Virus record (IMG/VR): IMGVR_UViG_2579778919_000011
Reading direction: 5' to 3' (one strand)
DNA: 14,300 bases
DNA from: a virus
Lineage: Duplodnaviria; Heunggongvirae; Uroviricota; Caudoviricetes
Made by a program: the position numbers and the translations under genes. Of this stretch, positions 2,191 to 14,300 are shown in pieces. Within the stretch, counting starts at the first letter, position 1, and each line of letters opens with the position of its first letter. The notes under the pieces were generated by a model. That model saw only the letters and a program-made list of their open reading frames with translations, did no database searches and had not been told where the DNA came from.

Positions 2191-2550
2191 ATGAGAATGA
2201 CCAGCCGCAAAAAAGAGGTACTCAGTTACTTTGAGCCGGATAGCCTCGACTGGGTTACTGGTGAGATTGGTGCGCCGCCGTTCGATGTGTCGGGCGTGGC
2301 CTACCTTCTTCATGGCATGGCGTCGTTCGATAAGCGCCACCAGCTCGAATCAACCCGGCGAACTCTTGAAAGCATGGTTGCCGGGGGGCTACTGGAACGT
2401 GTGACAGTGTATGAATCGCGTCAGGTAAAGCGTGGCGGTGAAACTAACGCAACGGTCGTGCGCTACGGTTTACCCGGTCAATGTGCCGTTGTGCGCGATA
2501 ATGGCGGCGCTGATAACTCGATATCTGGTGAATATGAGCGGGTTGGCTAA
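2191..2550 (+). CDS. Hypothetical protein (119 aa); only plus-strand gene in the island, at its left edge
   Basis: ATG at 2191 with AAGGA about 11 nt upstream; TAA at 2548-2550. Composition resembles neighbouring island genes. No family recognised. It competes with a minus-strand ORF at 2137..2340. Confidence 0.45.
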   Translation: MRMTSRKKEVLSYFEPDSLDWVTGEIGAPPFDVSGVAYLLHGMASFDKRHQLESTRRTLESMVAGGLLERVTVYESRQVKRGGETNATVVRYGLPGQCAVVRDNGGADNSISGEYERVG

Positions 2551-2570
2551 CGCGATGATTCGCAGGGCGG

Positions 2571-2756
2571 CTATCTTCGCGGCGCTGGCTTCTTCCACTG
2601 GTAGGCGGGTGATCTCATCATTTCGCGGAACCTGTCGCGCCGCGCTGTATCGGCCTTAATCATGCGCTCCATCTCCCGAACCTCTACCGGAGTAAGCTGG
2701 TGGCCTTCATGCTCCAGCTTTGCGGCTGTCAGTGCGGCTATCTGCTGCGGTGTCAT
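2571..2756 (-). CDS. Hypothetical small protein (61 aa)
   Basis: ATG at 2754-2756 with a weak AGGG upstream; charged, Arg-rich sequence. It is co-oriented with the upstream island operon. Short ORF, weak support. Confidence 0.35.
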   Translation of the reverse strand: MTPQQIAALTAAKLEHEGHQLTPVEVREMERMIKADTARRDRFREMMRSPAYQWKKPAPRR

Positions 2757-2863: not shown

Positions 2864-3475
2864 CTACGGAATCAGGCTAATGCCTCTGGCTGCTTTCCCC
2901 GTCTTACGCTCAATCACGCCCGTGATTCTGTCCACTACCGGGCTGAATGCCTGCCAGTAAACACTCTCATAGCGAACCAGCACCCCTACTTTTTTGTTGA
3001 ATGTATCCCAGCGCATTCCCTTCGGCTTCGGGAAGGAACAGGGATTGTTAGCTAAATTACGTGTCTGTTCGGTGTTTCCCCAGACGGCATAACGCTGACG
3101 GCGCATTTTCATTCGCATCCGGCCTAACCTGTCCTCGCTCTGGCTGGTGTAGTGAAGTTTCCAGCACGCCCGGCAGCCAATATCTTTTTTGCCAATATAC
3201 AGCTTTGCAGCCCGTTTCATACAGTGGGGGCAAACGTACCATTCCCGCACGCCATACCCGGCCTGTGTGGTTGTGGTGCGAATCGCCCGCGTCACGCCGT
3301 TGATTGTCATGGCGTAGCTGTCGGCTTGCCGGAAGGTATACAACGTTCCGCTTTCGGTCTGGGTATAAAGCTGCGTACCCGGTTCAGCATCCGCCAGCCT
3401 GCTACGCATGTGCGAAAGGAATGGCAACCCTATGCGGGGCAGGTCGGTGGTATAGCTGCGCGTTCTGTCTCTCAC
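2864..3475 (-). CDS. Hypothetical protein with C4 zinc ribbon (203 aa), GTG start
   Basis: GTG at 3473-3475 is preceded by AGGAGG at 7-nt spacing. The protein contains CPHC-N15-CRAC (CxxC...CxxC). No family confidently recognised. Confidence 0.65.
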   Translation of the reverse strand: MRDRTRSYTTDLPRIGLPFLSHMRSRLADAEPGTQLYTQTESGTLYTFRQADSYAMTINGVTRAIRTTTTQAGYGVREWYVCPHCMKRAAKLYIGKKDIGCRACWKLHYTSQSEDRLGRMRMKMRRQRYAVWGNTEQTRNLANNPCSFPKPKGMRWDTFNKKVGVLVRYESVYWQAFSPVVDRITGVIERKTGKAARGISLIP

Positions 3476-3499
3476 TGGCTGGCCTCCTGCGAATTACTG

Positions 3500-3715
3500 C
3501 GCATTAACTGCGAACGGTGCGCAAATTGAATACGAAATAATATGCGTATTTTACTGTAAATTGCGCACTATTTTGCGCACTGCGAACCAATGGCGCGAGC
3601 CAGAATATTTTGGACTGCCTAAATCGAATATGGCTTCCAGCCCGCTACTGGCGCGGTTCTCTCTTCATATGGGCTTTGAGTCTGTCCAGTACAGTCCAGT
3701 ATTTCAACATCGGTG
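3500..3715. repeat. Intergenic module copy A (diverged direct repeat of 4110-4315)
   Basis: The 3580-3656 core aligns to 4173-4250 at roughly 78 percent identity by hand alignment (about 17 differences over 78 positions). Both copies carry several CTGCG/TGCGCA motifs and a CTGT-N5-ACAG dyad, here at 3682-3694. Confidence 0.6.
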
Positions 3716-3728
3716 ACTATACGGATTG

Positions 3729-4106
3729 CTAACATGCGCCGTTTTTTTTAACCCTTCGCAGATCCCGCCTTGCTTGCATTGAAACGGATCTCGCTAAACT
3801 CAGCTCAAGCCGTGCGATTCTGTCGGCATGTAGCCCCATGAGTCCGTTAATCAATGTCATCTCGCGCCATTCTTCTGTTCCCGGCGTCGGATTAGTCGCC
3901 AGTAATAGCCCGTATCTCTCAGCCATCATGAGGTTTCTTGCACGATTTCGCACCAGCGGAGAAAGCGCATCTTCTCCCTCAAACGGGAAGAATACCCGCC
4001 TACTGCGTTCGCCATGTTTGACGGCATTAGTATTGCCCAACGGTGCGCCTGCGCCTTTCCGCTTGCCACCCCATCCCGATCTTGATTGTTGGCTATTTTT
4101 TTTCAT
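3729..4106 (-). CDS. Terminase small subunit-like protein (125 aa); candidate packaging-redirection factor
   Basis: ATG at 4104-4106. The N-terminus GGKRKGAGAPLGNTNAVKHG matches the G-x-G-A-P-x-G-N-x-N-A-x-K-H-G motif I associate with one class of phage small terminase subunits. The size is typical of TerS. Assignment is by motif only. Confidence 0.55.
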   Translation of the reverse strand: MKKNSQQSRSGWGGKRKGAGAPLGNTNAVKHGERSRRVFFPFEGEDALSPLVRNRARNLMMAERYGLLLATNPTPGTEEWREMTLINGLMGLHADRIARLELSLARSVSMQARRDLRRVKKNGAC

Positions 4107-4109
4107 TTA

Positions 4110-4315
4110 ACGGCTCACTGTGCGCAAAAACCCTAACTGAATGCGCGGTTTTGCTGCGTACCTGACTGCGTACTGCGTACCAGTGGCGCGAACCTGAATA
4201 TTCTGGACGGTCTAAATCACGCTCTGGCTTCCAGCCCTCTGCTGGCGCGGGTTTAGCGCTACGAGGGTTTAAAATCTGTCAAGAACAGTCTAGAATTTTA
4301 GCCTGCGTTCGGTGC
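4110..4315. repeat. Intergenic module copy B (diverged direct repeat of 3500-3715)
   Basis: See copy A. The CTGT-N5-ACAG dyad is at 4276-4288. This copy lies immediately upstream of the TerS-like gene. Confidence 0.6.
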
Positions 4316-4320
4316 GAACC

Positions 4321-4671
4321 TCACGGCACAGACGAGTACCAGTAAAAGCCTGTTAGCCCGGCATCGCAGCGCTCACGATTAAGCACGCGTGGCGGTTGCT
4401 CTCTGGTCATCAACTCCAGCGAAGCATTACCTCCCTGCGTCTCCAGGCGGTATTGCCTGTCGGTAGTGGTGATGGCATCAGGCAATAACTTTATGGCGGC
4501 CTGGCTAAAGTCTCGCGGCGCGCCGTAAAATTGCGCATCAATAATATGAACCACATCGCCGTTAATCGTTGTCCGATAACGATCTGGCTGTATTGTAAAG
4601 CCCCCACAATGGATAGCAGATAGTGCCGGTGCAGAGGAGATCAGGCAGGCTGCCAGAATGTATTGCTTCAT
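4321..4671 (-). CDS. Small exported protein (116 aa) with N-terminal signal peptide
   Basis: ATG at 4669-4671 overlaps the upstream stop (ATGA). The N-terminus MKQYILAACLISSAPALSA is n-region plus hydrophobic core plus AxA-like cleavage site. No family recognised. Confidence 0.6.
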   Translation of the reverse strand: MKQYILAACLISSAPALSAIHCGGFTIQPDRYRTTINGDVVHIIDAQFYGAPRDFSQAAIKLLPDAITTTDRQYRLETQGGNASLELMTREQPPRVLNRERCDAGLTGFYWYSSVP

Positions 4672-5309
4672 TCTTCACCCACCAATTCATCCAGTTCAGC
4701 CAGCGTCAGAGGCTTTGGTACAGGCTTGTCGATATCGCCCATAATGCGCTGGAAGTTTCTGGCGGGCATATGGTTACGGTTCTCCAGTATTTTCGCCAGC
4801 GCGATAACATCCCACCATTTCAGGGTAATCAGCGCCTGAGCGCGGGAAAGGGATATTCGCTGTATATCGGCGTCCTCCCCACCAGCTACCCGGTATACCT
4901 CGGATAAATCACGAACATTTTTCATATCTGCTTTCCCGGACGTTTCCATCAGTGCGTCAATATCATCCTCCGTATAGCGTGATTGCGCGACGATACCAGC
5001 CAGAGAGCTAACCATAGCCCGGCATACTTGGTCTATCAGACGTAATCTGGCGTCATCGTTCGAGAGGGTGTAAGACTTAACCTCAGCCACATTCCGTGGA
5101 TAGTTGGCGTGCCATACCGCGACGGCTCCACACTCATCAACATCGCCGCCAAGGTAGGTTTTTGCCACTCGGTTATTACCCGATAATGCAATTTCTACCC
5201 CCTGTATGCCGAAAAACCATGCGGCTATCGCATGACCTGCTTCGTGTATTGCGAGATGTCTGGGCCAGCGATAGCTGCCTAACTCGATAATGGTGGGTTG
5301 TGTACTCAT
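4668..5309 (-). CDS. HEAGH zinc metallopeptidase-like protein (FtsH/M41-like motif, no AAA+ module)
   Basis: The ATG at 5307-5309 (MSTQPT...) is preceded by AGAGGGAAGA and sits 10 nt after the SSB stop. The ORF-track start at 5366 would overlap SSB by 47 nt. The protein contains LAIHEAGHAIAAW, resembling the FtsH zinc-binding HEAGHA motif. Confidence 0.7.
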   Translation of the reverse strand: MSTQPTIIELGSYRWPRHLAIHEAGHAIAAWFFGIQGVEIALSGNNRVAKTYLGGDVDECGAVAVWHANYPRNVAEVKSYTLSNDDARLRLIDQVCRAMVSSLAGIVAQSRYTEDDIDALMETSGKADMKNVRDLSEVYRVAGGEDADIQRISLSRAQALITLKWWDVIALAKILENRNHMPARNFQRIMGDIDKPVPKPLTLAELDELVGEE

Positions 5310-5319
5310 ATCTTCCCTC

Positions 5320-5781
5320 TCAGAATGGATCTTCATCATCAAACGGCGGGCGCTGGTCAAAATCATCAGGGGTGTTATATAGCTCCCATCCCGGCGCGGG
5401 TTGCGTGGTATGGCCCCTGCTGGCTTCGCTTGCTTTGACTGACTCGGCCCGCTTCCCGCCGGGGCGTACCGTTCTGGCGCTGATCACGCTGTCGGCTACT
5501 ACCTGATACCCCTGCTGTGTACCGCCATCCTTGCCCGTCCACTGATTGACCTGCATCGCTCCGGCAACACTGACTAAATCGCCTTTAACGTGTCCTGCCA
5601 GTGCGTCGGCCTGTTTGCCGAATGCCACCACGCCCAGCCAGAAAGTAACCTCTCCGCCCTCTGCTGCATGGCAGGGCAGTGCCACCGCTAACCGTCCCAT
5701 TGCCATGCTTGTACCGCTTGCTGTGGTGCGGGTCTGGGGATCTGCCACCAGCCGCCCGTATGCTGATATCTGTGCTGTCAT
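5320..5781 (-). CDS. ssb: Single-stranded DNA-binding protein (153 aa)
   Basis: OB-fold-like pattern TFWLGVVAFGKQADALAGHVKGD...W...YQVV, and an acidic C-terminal tail ...PPFDDEDPF resembling the SSB DDDIPF tail. Its start overlaps the upstream stop (TAATG). Confidence 0.85.
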   Translation of the reverse strand: MTAQISAYGRLVADPQTRTTASGTSMAMGRLAVALPCHAAEGGEVTFWLGVVAFGKQADALAGHVKGDLVSVAGAMQVNQWTGKDGGTQQGYQVVADSVISARTVRPGGKRAESVKASEASRGHTTQPAPGWELYNTPDDFDQRPPFDDEDPF

Positions 5782-6019: not shown

Positions 6020-6275
6020 TAATATCCCTACCAAACCCTACTAATCGATGAAACCCAGATATGGCGCGGCTTTCAGGCTAGTAGGGAATTGTTTTTCTTA
6101 CCCTACATAACCCTACTTATCCCTACTAAATCACTTCAACGGCATTTTACTGCCTGTTTTATTTGGTAGGGATATGTAGGGATAAGTAGGGATAAGTATA
6201 TATATCCCTACCAGTCTACAAACCCCGTCATTACTGGCCTTAAATGACTTTGTAGGGATAGGTAGGGATAAATCA
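6020..6275. repeat. Iteron array; putative island origin of replication
   Basis: Five direct GTAGGGATA copies at 6166, 6176, 6186, 6252 and 6262, the first three and last two at exact 10-bp spacing. Three inverted TATCCCTAC copies at 6023, 6118 and 6203, plus partial copies (CCCTAC at 6101 and 6111, GTAGGGAA at 6081). An AT-rich GTATATATAT lies at 6196-6205. The array is immediately 3' of the primase-helicase gene. Confidence 0.75.
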
Positions 6276-6283
6276 GGGGTAAA

Positions 6284-8728
6284 CTATTCTTCGCCCCCTT
6301 CGGCGGTGCTGCTGCCATATGCTCGCGGTATAAACTCCTCAGCCATCTCGTTATAGCCCACGTTGGTTTGCGCTCTGCCGTTAATGCTTCGCGTCAGGTA
6401 GCTGGCTCGGTACTCTTTTGCTGCTGATTTTATGGCGCGTGAAAACTTATTGACGGAAAGCGGTTTACCCAGCCCGTGATACTCCATAAACGCCAGGTAA
6501 AGATGATAAAGATACGCCCTCGGCTCTGGCTGGCCTGCCCATGTACCTCCGCCCATCATCATGCCTTTGGGTTCGTTCATGAAAAAAAGTGCCGCACACA
6601 TATCGATAACCGGATCTGTGCCGCGTTTAACGTCTAGCGCCTCCTGAGAATCGCGCTGCTCAAGTAACAGTGCCTTTGCTTTGTTCTGGTCGGAAAAGGT
6701 GGTTAGCAGGTGGCGGATAATCACCGGGATTTCTCGCCTGATTTTTGCGGTTAAATCCGGGTCTTTGTCTGCGTCTGATACCGGGTTATTAAACGGGAAT
6801 ATCACGCGGCGGCGGGCAATGCCCCCGTTTCGCTCCGTGAATGTCATCGGCTCGTTATTGGTTGCCATAACAACGGCATTTATCACGGTTGTGAACTGCT
6901 TTTCATATTTCCCATCAATCTCTACCGGATCGCCGCCCGTAATGGCTTTAATCCCCGCACCCTCTCCAACGTAGCGGGTCTGGTCAGGCATAATAATCAG
7001 GCTTTTCCCTACGAACTGCGCCCGTCCCCGTGCGGTGTCCAGCGTCATCATGCTACCGCTGGCGGTGTTGTGTTCACCTGCCAGCGTGGTTGCTATGCTG
7101 CTGAATACGGATTTCCCACTGCCGCCCTCGCCAGTTATCTCAATGAATAGCTGCCAGTCGTGACGCTTCGCCAGCACCATAAACAAGGCTGCTTTGATAC
7201 GCTCGGCCTTATGATGGTCGCCAGCCGTTGCATGATTCAGCCAACGGGTAAAATTGGGGGCGCTGGTGGAAATATTCTCCCCCGGCGCTGGCGGGGTGTA
7301 GGTGATCCCATTGTGGTTCATCAGCCAGTTACCCGGCGAATGGGCGGAAAACGTCTGCGTAGCGAGGTCATAAACGCCGTTATCAAAACCAATCAGATCC
7401 CCGCTCCGCTCACCAATTACCGGTATTTGCAGCTTCATGGTTGCGACAACCGATTTAATCCCTTTTTCGGTGTAGTGGGCTTCGTGCTCGTCGAAAATTG
7501 CCACCATAACCCTTTCTAATTCGCTGTCTGGTAGCTTCACCCATACGCCAGATTCGTAGCAGTAAACAGCGCCACTATCAGGGTTGACCGCCAACATATC
7601 CCAGCGAGATGAAAGCAACCGCGCTTTCTGGCTGGCTGCCATTTGTGCAATATCTCCGACTTCGGCTTTACGGCGGGATTTACCGCCCACAATGGCCTGT
7701 AGTTGTGGTTTCACGGCTTCCCCCTGAATCTGGTACATCGAATCGTTAAACGCAGCCGTAGCGACTTCCAGCCCGTTTTGCTGGCGGTAGTCGTCCCAGT
7801 CGGCTTTGTAGTCTGTCGGCGGCAGCGCCACCCAGCCAGCCACGGATAAGGCGGCTTTCTCTGCGGCCTCCCTGCCTGTATTGGCTTCTCCGTTTTGGTG
7901 GTGGTCGTTGTCTGCGGCGATAATAATTTGCGCCTTCGGGTGTTTCCGGCGCATTACTCCGGCAACGGGTAGCAGGTTGCCCGCGTCAATTGCTGCCACT
8001 GCCAGCGCGTCCGGGCGCATCAGGTGAACTGACAGAGCGGTAGCCAGCCCCTCGGCAATCACGACGCTTTGAGGCCGTTCCAGCGCGTTTACGGCGTAAT
8101 ATGCCCCGCGCTTTGCTGAACCTGTCAGAAGTCGCTTTTCTCCCTGCGGGGTGATGGTCTGCGCGGCTGTGACTGCGCCGGATTCATCCACCAGCTCCAG
8201 CAATAACGAACCATCGGGCATTAGCGGGTAATTGAACCCGGTCAGCCCTTTTGATTGCAGGTAATCAGATTCGCCCTGTGTGACGTTCTGGCGCATTCCG
8301 GCATACAGACGGGTAAACGTTGCCCTTCGCTGCTCTGCGTCCTCTGCTGCCTGTTGCTGGCGCTCCTGCTCACGCTGCTGGCGGTCAGCCTCCAGTTGCT
8401 CCCTTCTCTGGCTCGCTGCCGTCTGGTCGGTTTGTGCTGCCCGGTAATCAATACCCAGCACATCAGCGGCAAGGTGCGCCGCCTCCGTGGTGTCGCAGTT
8501 GTTAACCCGCTTGATTAAATCCAGCCCGTCGCCCGCGCCGCACTGATTGCAGATAAAGCTGCCGCGCCCGTTGTCGTCGAACCGGAAGCGATCCGTACCG
8601 CCACATGCAGGGCAGGGGGCATGGCGGCGTGATGAATCAGGCACGTCGATAGACAGGCCAGCCAGCACATAAGGCCAGTTACCAGCGGCGGCGGTGGTCA
8701 CTTCGCGGATAAAGTCGATATTACGCAT
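6284..8728 (-). CDS. Primase-helicase (P4 alpha-like / Pri-Rep), 814 aa
   Basis: N-terminal zinc ribbon CPACGG...CNQCG; Toprim-like motifs VVIAEGLATALS and IIIAADNDHH; Walker A GEGGSGKS in the C-terminal NTPase domain. GAGGGAG lies 7 nt upstream of the ATG at 8726-8728. Confidence 0.9.
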   Translation of the reverse strand: MRNIDFIREVTTAAAGNWPYVLAGLSIDVPDSSRRHAPCPACGGTDRFRFDDNGRGSFICNQCGAGDGLDLIKRVNNCDTTEAAHLAADVLGIDYRAAQTDQTAASQRREQLEADRQQREQERQQQAAEDAEQRRATFTRLYAGMRQNVTQGESDYLQSKGLTGFNYPLMPDGSLLLELVDESGAVTAAQTITPQGEKRLLTGSAKRGAYYAVNALERPQSVVIAEGLATALSVHLMRPDALAVAAIDAGNLLPVAGVMRRKHPKAQIIIAADNDHHQNGEANTGREAAEKAALSVAGWVALPPTDYKADWDDYRQQNGLEVATAAFNDSMYQIQGEAVKPQLQAIVGGKSRRKAEVGDIAQMAASQKARLLSSRWDMLAVNPDSGAVYCYESGVWVKLPDSELERVMVAIFDEHEAHYTEKGIKSVVATMKLQIPVIGERSGDLIGFDNGVYDLATQTFSAHSPGNWLMNHNGITYTPPAPGENISTSAPNFTRWLNHATAGDHHKAERIKAALFMVLAKRHDWQLFIEITGEGGSGKSVFSSIATTLAGEHNTASGSMMTLDTARGRAQFVGKSLIIMPDQTRYVGEGAGIKAITGGDPVEIDGKYEKQFTTVINAVVMATNNEPMTFTERNGGIARRRVIFPFNNPVSDADKDPDLTAKIRREIPVIIRHLLTTFSDQNKAKALLLEQRDSQEALDVKRGTDPVIDMCAALFFMNEPKGMMMGGGTWAGQPEPRAYLYHLYLAFMEYHGLGKPLSVNKFSRAIKSAAKEYRASYLTRSINGRAQTNVGYNEMAEEFIPRAYGSSTAEGGEE

Positions 8729-11254: not shown

Positions 11255-11689
11255 TTAGGCGGCGGTGAGATTGTCCGGGTATAGGTTGAGAATGTCGGCA
11301 ATTTCAGGCTGAGAAAGTCCCTGATAGCCGCCAGCGTCGGCGTTATGGTTCACAAGCCGAATAACTTTTAGAACGTCACCGCGCCCGGTAAAGCGATAGC
11401 GTAAATGTGACCCTATCCCGTCGGGGTTCTTTTCGTCTATACGCTCAAGCTGAATATCAAGCCTGCGCTCTAACTCGCTGGCGTAGTTCCTTCCAGATGA
11501 AAGGCGGCAATATCGCAGAATGTCGTTTTCTGTCCATCCCTCTACGCCAGTACGCAGCATATAGACGCGGGCGCGGTGTTTCTTTGGGGTTCGCTTAGGT
11601 ACTTGTACCGGGCTGGTGGTCGGCGTAATATCAGACGTGCGAATATCTGAGTTAGCCGCCTGCTGTACGGGGCGGTTTTTCTTTTTCAT
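11255..11689 (-). CDS. Hypothetical protein (144 aa), basic N-terminus
   Basis: ATG at 11687-11689 overlaps the alpA stop (TAATG). Lys/Arg/Pro-rich N-terminal region; no family recognised. Confidence 0.65.
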   Translation of the reverse strand: MKKKNRPVQQAANSDIRTSDITPTTSPVQVPKRTPKKHRARVYMLRTGVEGWTENDILRYCRLSSGRNYASELERRLDIQLERIDEKNPDGIGSHLRYRFTGRGDVLKVIRLVNHNADAGGYQGLSQPEIADILNLYPDNLTAA

Positions 11690-11892
11690 TACGCCACCTT
11701 TCCCCGGCGCTCCGCCAGCCAGTTGTGAATATCAGCCGCATCAAAGGCGGTAATCTTCTCGCCCAGCTTTACCGGACGTGGTAGTGAACCGTTTCTTACT
11801 TTACGGTCGATGGTGGATACACTAACGCCCAGCAATTCAGCCAGGCGAAAGCGTCTGATATAGCCTTTTGTAGGGATAGTGTCGATGTTCAT
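11689..11892 (-). CDS. alpA: AlpA-family phage transcriptional regulator (67 aa)
   Basis: RFRLAELLGVSVSTIDRKVRNGSLPRPVKLGEKITAFDAADIHNWL matches the AlpA/excisionase-like helix-turn-helix pattern. It sits in the typical position near the integrase. Confidence 0.85.
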   Translation of the reverse strand: MNIDTIPTKGYIRRFRLAELLGVSVSTIDRKVRNGSLPRPVKLGEKITAFDAADIHNWLAERRGKVA

Positions 11893-12940: not shown

Positions 12941-13040
12941 GCTGTGCCTTAAAGAGTGATTGAGCCAGGCGGTAAGGCTTCCCGCTTTTCGCCCCGTCGG
13001 GCTAGGCTCAATCTGTCCTCTGATTCTTTACATATCTTGG

Positions 13041-14300
13041 TTACTTCGCCTTTCTCAGCGGTGTAACGTTGTATTCTTCGCCGCGTTCCAGTGCCACCAG
13101 CAAGCCCGCCCACTGTGTTAACGCAGCCCGGCGTTCATCAAAGTATTGGTGGCGGTTATAGATACCCTCCACGCCTTTAATTTTGTGGTTAAGGCATCTT
13201 TCTGCGACTACCGGATCAACGCCCAGCGCGGCTAAATGGGTGCGGGCCGTGCGCCGGAAGTCGTGAATGGTGAAGTTCGGCACGTCCGGCATTTCAGCGC
13301 GAACCTTCGCCAGCGCAACGGGCAGGGTGCTTTCCTGAATATGGGGGATCATGCGGTTTTGCATCTTTCTGGCTGGCAGTACCCATGCGCTGTTGCATGA
13401 GAACGTTTTAAGCTCTCTCAGCCATTCGACGGCTGGCGGTGCTAATGGGATGTCTATAGCGTCGCCGTTTTTGCTGCGTTCCTCTGGCAAGCGCCATACG
13501 GCTTTATCAAAATCGAACTCCTCCCAGCGGGCGGCGCATAACTCCATTTTGCGGACGCATAACGCTAACAGTAATTTGAACGTGATTTCGTTCTGGCGAC
13601 TGAATCCCTTAGCCGTGCGCATGGCTTTGAATAGCTGGATTAACTCATCGCGGGTTAACCAGCGGTCACGGGCAACTTCTTTCCCTCCGGCGTCTGCCAC
13701 CTCAAAGGCTGAACATGGGTTAATCTCCAGCGCGTGCCGTTTGATTCCGTAGTCGAATATGCGGCGCGTCCATCTCAGCACGTCCGTTGCTATGGTCGGC
13801 GCTCCACGGTCAACAATACCTTTCAGCATGTCATCGATATGGCGCGGTTTCACGTCCTCTACCTTCATGCTGCCAATGCAGGGGTTTATATCTTTGTCGA
13901 TACGGCGGCGGAGTATATCGGGGTGCTTCCAGCGCGGGAGGATCTGACGCTCAAAGTATTCAGCGGCAAGCTCTGAAACGCGCATGGCGTTCTTCTCTGC
14001 TTCCATCTTCGCCAGTGCTTCGGCTTTCCGTTCCTGCTTCTCTCCCGCGACGTCATAACCCAGCGCAACACGCGCCGATAGCTCTTTGGCTGTCTCTCTG
14101 GCCTTTGATAGTGATAGCTCGGCATATGAGCCAATCAGCATGGCGCGGGGTTTCCCTGCGAATTTATAGCGGAATCGCCAGACGGGGGTCTGGTAGTTTT
14201 CGCGGTATGAAAGATAAAGCCCGTTACCGTCAGAGCGTCCCTCGAATCGCTCCCCGGCCTTTATCCATGCGCGGATCTGCATGTCTGTGAGTTTTGGCAT
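13041..14300 (-). CDS. int: Tyrosine recombinase / integrase, P4-family (419 aa)
   Basis: The N-terminus MPKLTDMQIRAWIKAGERF...DGNGLYL resembles the arm-binding domain of P4-type integrases. C-terminal catalytic residues are present: HDFRRTARTH (HxxR) and GIYNRHQY (catalytic Tyr). The ATG is the last three bases of the window, so the promoter is outside it. Confidence 0.9.
   Translation of the reverse strand: MPKLTDMQIRAWIKAGERFEGRSDGNGLYLSYRENYQTPVWRFRYKFAGKPRAMLIGSYAELSLSKARETAKELSARVALGYDVAGEKQERKAEALAKMEAEKNAMRVSELAAEYFERQILPRWKHPDILRRRIDKDINPCIGSMKVEDVKPRHIDDMLKGIVDRGAPTIATDVLRWTRRIFDYGIKRHALEINPCSAFEVADAGGKEVARDRWLTRDELIQLFKAMRTAKGFSRQNEITFKLLLALCVRKMELCAARWEEFDFDKAVWRLPEERSKNGDAIDIPLAPPAVEWLRELKTFSCNSAWVLPARKMQNRMIPHIQESTLPVALAKVRAEMPDVPNFTIHDFRRTARTHLAALGVDPVVAERCLNHKIKGVEGIYNRHQYFDERRAALTQWAGLLVALERGEEYNVTPLRKAK

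Follow-up and report, generated by a model that had tools for sequence, protein, structure and literature searches.

A satellite-specific protein with a terminase-type motif and adjacent tandem boxes as a candidate packaging module of an Enterobacterales chromosomal island

Satellite factors that redirect the packaging machinery of a helper phage have already been described, and among them are the Rpp proteins of cos-type PICIs (RppA, RppB and RppC, 139-154 aa), whose genes lie just downstream of the packaging site. Rpp is defined by a winged helix-turn-helix (HTH) and redirects the helper TerS to the island (PMC6739421). In EcCICFT073, the cos-rpp layout is accompanied by two functional cos sites (PMC6092414, PMC9026076). 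SaPIs employ Ppi plus TerS in a two-shot strategy, and a one-shot strategy was also described (PMC6739421). Lack of any recognisable packaging gene places thousands of int-alpA-primase islands in the Type C class of PICIs (PMC10085698). At least one Type C island was found to be mobilised by a phage (PMC11773190), and EcCIMP1 was mobilised experimentally by a pac-type helper (PMC11773190, PMC10085698).

The stretch of DNA analysed here (14,300 nt, referred to as the window) represents a chromosomal island located between dinD/yicG and yicC, as judged from a 97%-identical island of Escherichia coli S43. All its genes are encoded by the minus strand, except for one 119-aa ORF (2191-2550, plus strand). 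Their order is integrase, a 317-aa ORF, an AlpA-type HTH gene, a 144-aa ORF, AntA/AntB, a DUF4222 protein and an Icd-like gene, followed by the P4-family primase, iterons, SSB, ORFs of 232 and 116 aa, the 125-aa ORF which is the main subject of this work (T125), and a 203-aa ORF (p203); coordinates are collected in Table 1. An earlier note on this DNA had stated that large terminase, portal and capsid genes are missing from the window, and neither the RefSeq annotation of the S43 island nor searches of the unnamed window ORFs with Pfam and PHROG revealed any of them. The integrase, the AlpA/MerR/Stl regulator and the primase-replicase used by SatelliteFinder to define a PICI (PMC10085698) are all present, and neither a capsid-morphogenesis nor a small-terminase gene, the further mark considered by that procedure, is recognisable in the island. 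It would thus score as Type C, like the validated EcCIMP1 (PMC11773190), with which it shares the int-alpA-antirepressor-primase(-PerC) arrangement and the lack of recognisable packaging genes (PMC11773190, PMC10085698). Unlike EcCIMP1, which occupies proA-yagU, the T125 island is inserted at yicC-dinD; moreover, the packaging candidates of EcCIMP1 are other hypothetical genes (EcCIMP1_017-019), not T125, and no strain named MP1 is found among the 42 T125-bearing E. coli genomes.

Several features of the proximal and central parts of the island deserve separate mention. An int-alpA RNA motif (RF02996, 64.9 bits; 12946-13012, minus strand) lies directly downstream of the integrase gene, before the 317-aa ORF and the AlpA-type gene. 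Inside the Icd-like region, beside AntA/AntB, the minus strand at 9789-10014 matches the Rfam models of C4 antisense RNA (80.8 bits), isrK (73 bits) and the c4-a1b1 target (49.3 bits), all above the gathering score, and the C4-icd-ant region looks like an immunity or antirepressor module of the P1/P7 type carried by a satellite. Inverted iteron arrays (TAGGGATA / TATCCCTA; 6020-6270), situated directly downstream of the primase gene, are probably the replication origin of the island.

Table 1. Positions of the features discussed in the text (window coordinates, except for the last row)
Feature	Position	Strand	Remarks
Integrase	13041-14300	minus	island gene
AlpA-type HTH	11689-11892	minus	island gene
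P4-family primase	6284-8728	minus	iterons adjacent
Repeat element A	4107..4330	minus	directly 5' of T125; conserved core, then short GTACGCAG / TGCGCA repeats
Box A	4276..4293	minus	CTAGACTGTTCTTGACAG; 187 nt upstream of T125 start; opens repeat A
T125	3729..4106	minus	ORF, ATG start, 125 aa
Repeat element B	3476..3735	minus	directly 3' of T125, 5' of the 203-aa gene; TTCGCAG / GTGCGCAA short repeats
Box B	3682..3699	minus	CTGGACTGTACTGGACAG; +407 from T125 start, ~30 nt past the stop; opens repeat B
p203	2864..3475	minus	203-aa CxxC...CxxC protein, downstream of element B
DUF2280 genes in phages/prophages	L032 1-459; L033 3501-3968; L034 6001-6474; L035-L037 2501-2989		

The 125-aa ORF with an N-terminal motif, to which the earlier note had drawn attention, is a genuine protein-coding gene maintained by purifying selection. 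Ten homologues were compared (dS was not computable for one of them, L019), and dN/dS amounted to 0.11-0.24 in the eight divergent, unsaturated comparisons, with synonymous sites near saturation, and to 0.64 for the near-identical copy L013. The start position and the length of the protein are constant over about 107 homologue clusters. Its sequence opens MKKNSQQSRSGWGGKRKGAGAPLGNTNAVKHGERSRR..., and the terminase-type motif GAGAPLGNTNAVKHG occupies residues 18-32. Residues ~1-44 are near-invariant (QSRSGWGGKRxGAGAPxGNTNAVKHGERSRRAFFPxEG), with a two-helix hairpin following; the positions invariant in the family alignment are G24, N25, N27, G32, E33, S35 and R81. The AF2 model shows disorder at residues 1-37 (pLDDT <50), helices at residues 50-71 and 77-124 (pLDDT >90), and no HTH or winged-helix domain; the family alignment, too, starts at the motif. 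T125 looks, in effect, like a TerS minus its DNA-recognition domain. That 44 "disordered" N-terminal residues hardly vary between genera speaks for their folding on a conserved partner, TerL or DNA, and we consider that this peptide probably becomes structured upon such a contact. Fold searches with T125 were uninformative, and four RefSeq accessions of island proteins, two of which are T125 alleles, gave no full-text match in the literature.

T125 had been described in the earlier note as a TerS-like protein, with a search of Pfam small-terminase profiles proposed as a check. Such a search returned no TerS family, the sole match being DUF6723 at E 0.042, and as far as profiles are concerned this outcome speaks essentially against that description. 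The NCBIfam model NF040601 (TerS_not_xtmA) reached 20 bits, where 120 are required, and covered no more than residues 9-35, and matches to TerS families of PHROG were below the threshold (phrog_1889, E 0.0022; phrog_509, E 0.2; phrog_370, E 0.37). All TerS profile matches are confined to residues ~9-36, which means a likeness of about 25 residues. When the T125 family profile was aligned by hhalign with TerS of Streptococcus phage Javan247, a phrog_509 protein (E 8e-79) whose HTH precedes the motif, the motif was aligned and nothing else. Membership of T125 in a TerS family is ruled out by these sub-threshold, motif-limited profiles, together with the absent HTH. The part of the claim that holds is the link between the motif and terminases. 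A hmmsearch with the T125 family, which covered 1.8 billion representative proteins, delineated a compact family of 29 matches at E <1e-10, and a tail of about 230 small proteins which have only GG[KR]RxGAGAPxGNxNAxKHG in common. Among 51 proteins from this tail, small terminase was the only PHROG annotation matched by more than one, with the best E of 1e-12; the TerS families matched by T125 or by motif-sharing proteins are phrog_1889, phrog_509, phrog_370, phrog_9231 and NF040601. A Pfam scan of the tail proteins gave no recurrent match, and the HTH-less proteins bearing the motif revealed no homology to the TerS PHROGs past it. Judged by these annotated relatives, the motif is terminase-specific. 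Like the YqaS-type TerS (phrog_509, phrog_1889; NF040601), T125 has G-A-P-x-G-N-x-N-A-x-K-H-G and then helical segments; YqaS-type proteins, however, are ~230 aa long and bear an N-terminal HTH, with the motif at positions ~45-100, whereas T125 starts at the motif.

Homologues of T125 form 107 clusters at 90% identity, all of them from Enterobacterales and all annotated as "hypothetical". In nearly all loci inspected, the gene is found amid integrase, primase or SSB genes of an island, usually near its distal end, and this setting was seen in E. coli, Klebsiella, Dickeya, Serratia, Salmonella, Pectobacterium, Rosenbergiella, Atlantibacter and Shimwellia. No homologue is present in 50,697 phage genomes, where the only matches, at E ~0.6, were to the TerS motif of Streptococcus phages; the distribution of T125 is thus restricted to satellites. 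A DUF2280 gene lies at most about 400 nt from T125 in 15 of 46 homologue loci that were screened for it, although not in the window; in a species-dereplicated set (Pectobacterium, Rosenbergiella, Serratia, Brenneria), most T125 loci are without DUF2280.

DUF2280 (PF10045, phrog_546) is annotated in PHROGs as of "unknown function", and a literature search found it in a single paper. Its gene is located directly upstream of TerL in Salmonella phage Oslo (gene 1), in Pseudomonas phage JBD44, and in lambdoid prophages of E. coli strains CFS3246, 873.10, EC09 and RM12581. It therefore holds the TerS slot in those phages, and, from gene position only, DUF2280 may be regarded as their small terminase. 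This slot in the candidate helper phages is filled by DUF2280, not by T125; no terL accompanies T125 in the window, and T125 is not a homologue of the helper TerS. Of the 15 DUF2280 copies found in satellites, nine are full length (157 aa). Since a separate gene of the TerS type adjoins T125 in many related satellites, T125 is unlikely to be the small terminase itself, and since the DUF2280 TerS lacks the T125-type motif, simple mimicry of the helper TerS by T125 is not the explanation.

A survey of 5426 complete E. coli genomes found 42 with T125, 52 with DUF2280, and four with both (CFS3246, its duplicate "strain 35", 873.10 and EC09). About 0.4 such genomes would be expected by chance, which corresponds to a Poisson P of ~7e-4, or ~7e-3 when three independent genomes are assumed, these counts being not phylogenetically independent and the P values taking no account of kinship. 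In all four genomes, the DUF2280 gene is distant on the chromosome from the T125 island, and in the three inspected (CFS3246, 873.10 and EC09) it resides within a lambdoid prophage. The other 38 of the 42 E. coli genomes with T125 have no detectable DUF2280 prophage, as may well happen with a satellite.

A further link between T125 and DUF2280 is provided by short tandem boxes. These are direct repeats of the form CTGGACnGTnCTGGACrG, in which two GACnG cores are spaced by approximately one helical turn, and two of them occur in the window (Table 1). The distance from the T125 start to a box is +407..+411 in the window and in eight related loci, which places the box about 30 nt past the T125 stop; in four further loci it lies elsewhere, either further out (up to +546) or closer (+276). 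Where a satellite has DUF2280, the box precedes the ATG of this gene by about 10-30 nt. Both half-sites change jointly in sister copies (TGGAC/TGGAC vs TAGTAC/TAGTAC). In E. coli prophages, a tandem of the same kind separates the DUF2280 ATG from the gene before it, and phage Oslo has one at its genome end (for example, ACTGGACTGTATAAGACGA and ATATGACTGATTATGACAGG); a tandem GACnG box always precedes the DUF2280 genes of the phages and prophages in Table 1. Box B mimics this phage sequence closely: in a targeted search, its segment AAATACTGGACTGTA was identical at 15 of 15 nt to the terS 5' flank of E. coli prophages (L034, L035 and L037; E 0.005). In the species-dereplicated set, boxes of the E. 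coli type occur in only two loci. As a separate observation, the region downstream of T125 in one locus (L016, 10465-10740) contains the 3' end of a phage "putative metallopeptidase" gene, a tandem box and a DUF2280 gene truncated to 55 aa, an arrangement that looks like a footprint of recombination with a helper phage.

One plausible explanation, which we favour while giving it slightly less than even credence, would be that T125 is not a canonical TerS, but a satellite-specific accessory of a packaging module which diverts a helper terminase of the DUF2280 type. According to this proposal, T125 would be made upon helper infection beside the tandem GACnG boxes of the island, which are of the kind found just upstream of the DUF2280-type terS in pac-type lambdoid phages. 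It would then engage the helper terminase, through either the DUF2280 TerS or TerL, with the result that packaging starts at the boxes of the island instead of on the phage; binding of T125 to terminase, recognition of DNA at the boxes and the effect on packaging are the proposed steps of this scheme. Several observations speak against it, namely the short stretch of TerS likeness, the naming of DUF2280 as TerS from gene position, the frequent absence of DUF2280 and the rarity of E. coli-type boxes in the species-dereplicated set, and the 38 T125-bearing E. coli genomes in which no DUF2280 prophage was detected. In some TerS families the motif is placed between the HTH and the oligomerisation domains, and T125 would correspond to this motif plus a coiled-coil hairpin. 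In satellites having their own DUF2280 TerS, T125 might form the second half of a two-shot strategy resembling that of SaPI TerS and Ppi. In the island of the window, where DUF2280 was either lost or never present and two boxes are kept, it might act with the helper TerS, in an Rpp-like manner. A bolder version, which we regard as possible but rather doubtful, is that T125 represents a new class of HTH-less hijackers plugging into the DUF2280 (pac) terminase, and constitutes, together with portable boxes, a pac-capture module.

The comparison with Rpp is instructive in this context. Like Rpp, T125 is a small island protein with a C-terminal coiled-coil, encoded beside a candidate packaging site, namely just downstream of repeat A and box A, in an island devoid of its own TerS and TerL; the two boxes recall the two copies of the packaging site in EcCICFT073 (PMC6092414). 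On the other hand, the winged HTH of Rpp resembles that of lambda TerS, whereas T125 has no such domain and the window no lambda-like cosN; the helper terminase of T125 would be of the DUF2280/pac type, whereas that of Rpp is of the Nu1/cos type. The identity of T125 as an Rpp was rejected, as no Rpp was matched when all PDB chains, among which the RppC structures should be present, were searched by phmmer and by hmmsearch with the family profile; the 144-aa and 203-aa neighbours of T125 likewise had no Rpp match among PDB sequences. T125 recalls SaPI Ppi in its placement, as it adjoins a satellite gene of the TerS type (DUF2280) in the 15 loci mentioned above, and it would, like Ppi, act on the helper terminase while packaging is directed by the TerS of the satellite (PMC6739421). 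Unlike the pac-type SaPIs with Ppi, the island of the window is without a TerS partner, and the hosts of T125 are Gram-negative. To our knowledge, the TerS-type motif present in T125 has not been reported for Ppi. As far as sequence comparisons can tell, what is new here is the T125 family, unrelated to Rpp, with its cis element.

Another possibility, close to the TerS-like protein of the earlier note, is that T125 itself would be a minimal, HTH-less TerS, which oligomerises through its hairpin, binds the adjacent short repeats and recruits the helper TerL. A two-helix hairpin, such as that of the T125 model, is the usual oligomerisation core of TerS, and the motif itself is TerS-linked. In a metagenomic phage (L031), a 109-aa ORF without HTH opens with this motif, and the beginning of a Terminase_3 TerL gene overlaps with it. 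Most T125 homologues are preceded by 200-1000 bp devoid of ORFs and filled with dense short repeats, and many satellites carry T125 and no other TerS-like gene. These repeats, however, are lineage-specific (TGCGAATTCGCA, GGTACGCA and GTTAAGGTTT in one group; TGCGCA-type repeats in E. coli and Klebsiella vs CGGTCGGA in Serratia), which the invariant N-terminus cannot explain, and T125 has no DNA-recognition domain that might read them. Moreover, the profile similarity ends at the motif, T125 is absent from phage genomes, and in 15 loci it coexists with a DUF2280 gene of the TerS type. We therefore consider a minimal TerS unlikely, and an accessory of a DUF2280-type terminase remains the reading that we prefer.

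The repeats flanking T125, noticed in the earlier note, are real, and we also agree that T125 together with them is the best candidate of this island for a packaging-hijack function, in view of its conserved position beside terminase-type genes and boxes. Elements A and B align as direct repeats of about 200 bp with a mean column identity of 78% (a repeat search recovered 52 nt at 85% and 74 nt at 73%), and each stands 5' of a minus-strand gene, A before T125 and B before the 203-aa gene. Of the 5426 complete E. coli genomes, 51 contain the element, the median being two copies per genome; it is missing from most T125 loci. Element A is 86% identical over 191 nt to its copy in a Klebsiella island, despite a pS of 0.64 at the synonymous sites of T125, which suggests either selection at the DNA level, acting on the element sequence itself, or recent exchange. 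Element B is kept in E. coli PCN061 despite deletion of the 203-aa gene. Derivation of the element from a phage cos or pac region was rejected, since blastn against the 50,697 phage genomes returned nothing at E <= 1, and so was a lambda-type cos, as matches to GGGCGGCGACCT occur in the window at chance frequency, with none near T125.

Such repeats could also be targets of regulation. T125 might regulate the distal operon, either as an activator that binds DNA or RNA or as an antiterminator, with its basic N-terminal arm acting on the leader repeats of T125 and p203. The two repeats are indeed the 5' regions of two consecutive genes and contain dyad and direct short repeats, the N-terminus of T125 is basic and disordered, and a search of the repeats for sigma-70 promoters found no good one on the gene strand, which would suit dependence on an activator. 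Nevertheless, T125 has no known DNA- or RNA-binding fold, and the only annotated relatives of its motif are terminases. A structured RNA was rejected, as the RNAalifold covariation term was +0.64 kcal/mol with a compensatory change in 2 of 30 predicted pairs, and Rfam had no match in the repeat region; furthermore, a regulator acting on the long element would lack its target at most T125 loci. This makes a regulatory role improbable. Still less credible is that T125 is unrelated cargo, for instance an anti-phage or interference factor outside packaging which hitch-hikes near terS-type genes: the high variability of the distal region and the uninformative fold searches would agree with it, but the window and eight loci keep a fixed distance between gene and box at near-saturated synonymous sites, T125 is conserved at the distal end of islands across many genera, and its motif is TerS-specific.

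If the accessory role of T125 is correct, DUF2280 would gain a function, and the Rpp/Ppi paradigm, established for cos-lambda and staphylococcal systems, would come to include pac-type lambdoid phages. T125 and the boxes copying the 5' flank of the helper terS may thus offer a concrete handle on packaging of Type C islands, with candidate helpers available in strains CFS3246 and 873.10. Should the pac-capture module also prove true, it would explain how abundant Type C PICIs of Enterobacterales are packaged without recognisable packaging genes; a group of lambdoid pac phages would then have DUF2280 as small terminase, which would recognise the tandem boxes.

The distal region of the islands is highly variable and contains PerC, p232/p116, p203, and metabolic or defence-like cargo. 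In the window, the place taken by the PerC gene in sister islands is occupied by two ORFs (4321-5366, minus strand), the 232-aa one with a HEAGH zinc-peptidase motif and the 116-aa one with a hydrophobic N-terminus resembling a signal sequence. No family was matched significantly by either of them, the 116-aa ORF being weakly similar to phrog_3443 (annotated as unknown function; E 0.004). Homology of the 232-aa protein (p232) to the phage "putative metallopeptidase" encoded upstream of terS was considered and rejected, the two being not homologous. The p203 protein holds the slot that DUF2280 has in related satellites, and in Serratia its gene lies ~3 kb upstream of T125. Its family is conserved in Enterobacterales islands, with 95 of 95 matches annotated as hypothetical. 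The AF2 model of p203 is confident (pLDDT 82.6) and consists of a beta-sheet, a zinc ribbon and long helices; a structure search with it found no structural neighbour. The 119-aa ORF of the opposite strand and a 61-aa ORF (window 2191-2756; L012-L030) recur near the distal end of many such islands, with identities of 64-93% and 30-89%, respectively, and the annotation of E. coli S43 places a partial "IS1096 passenger TnpR" pseudogene between the two.
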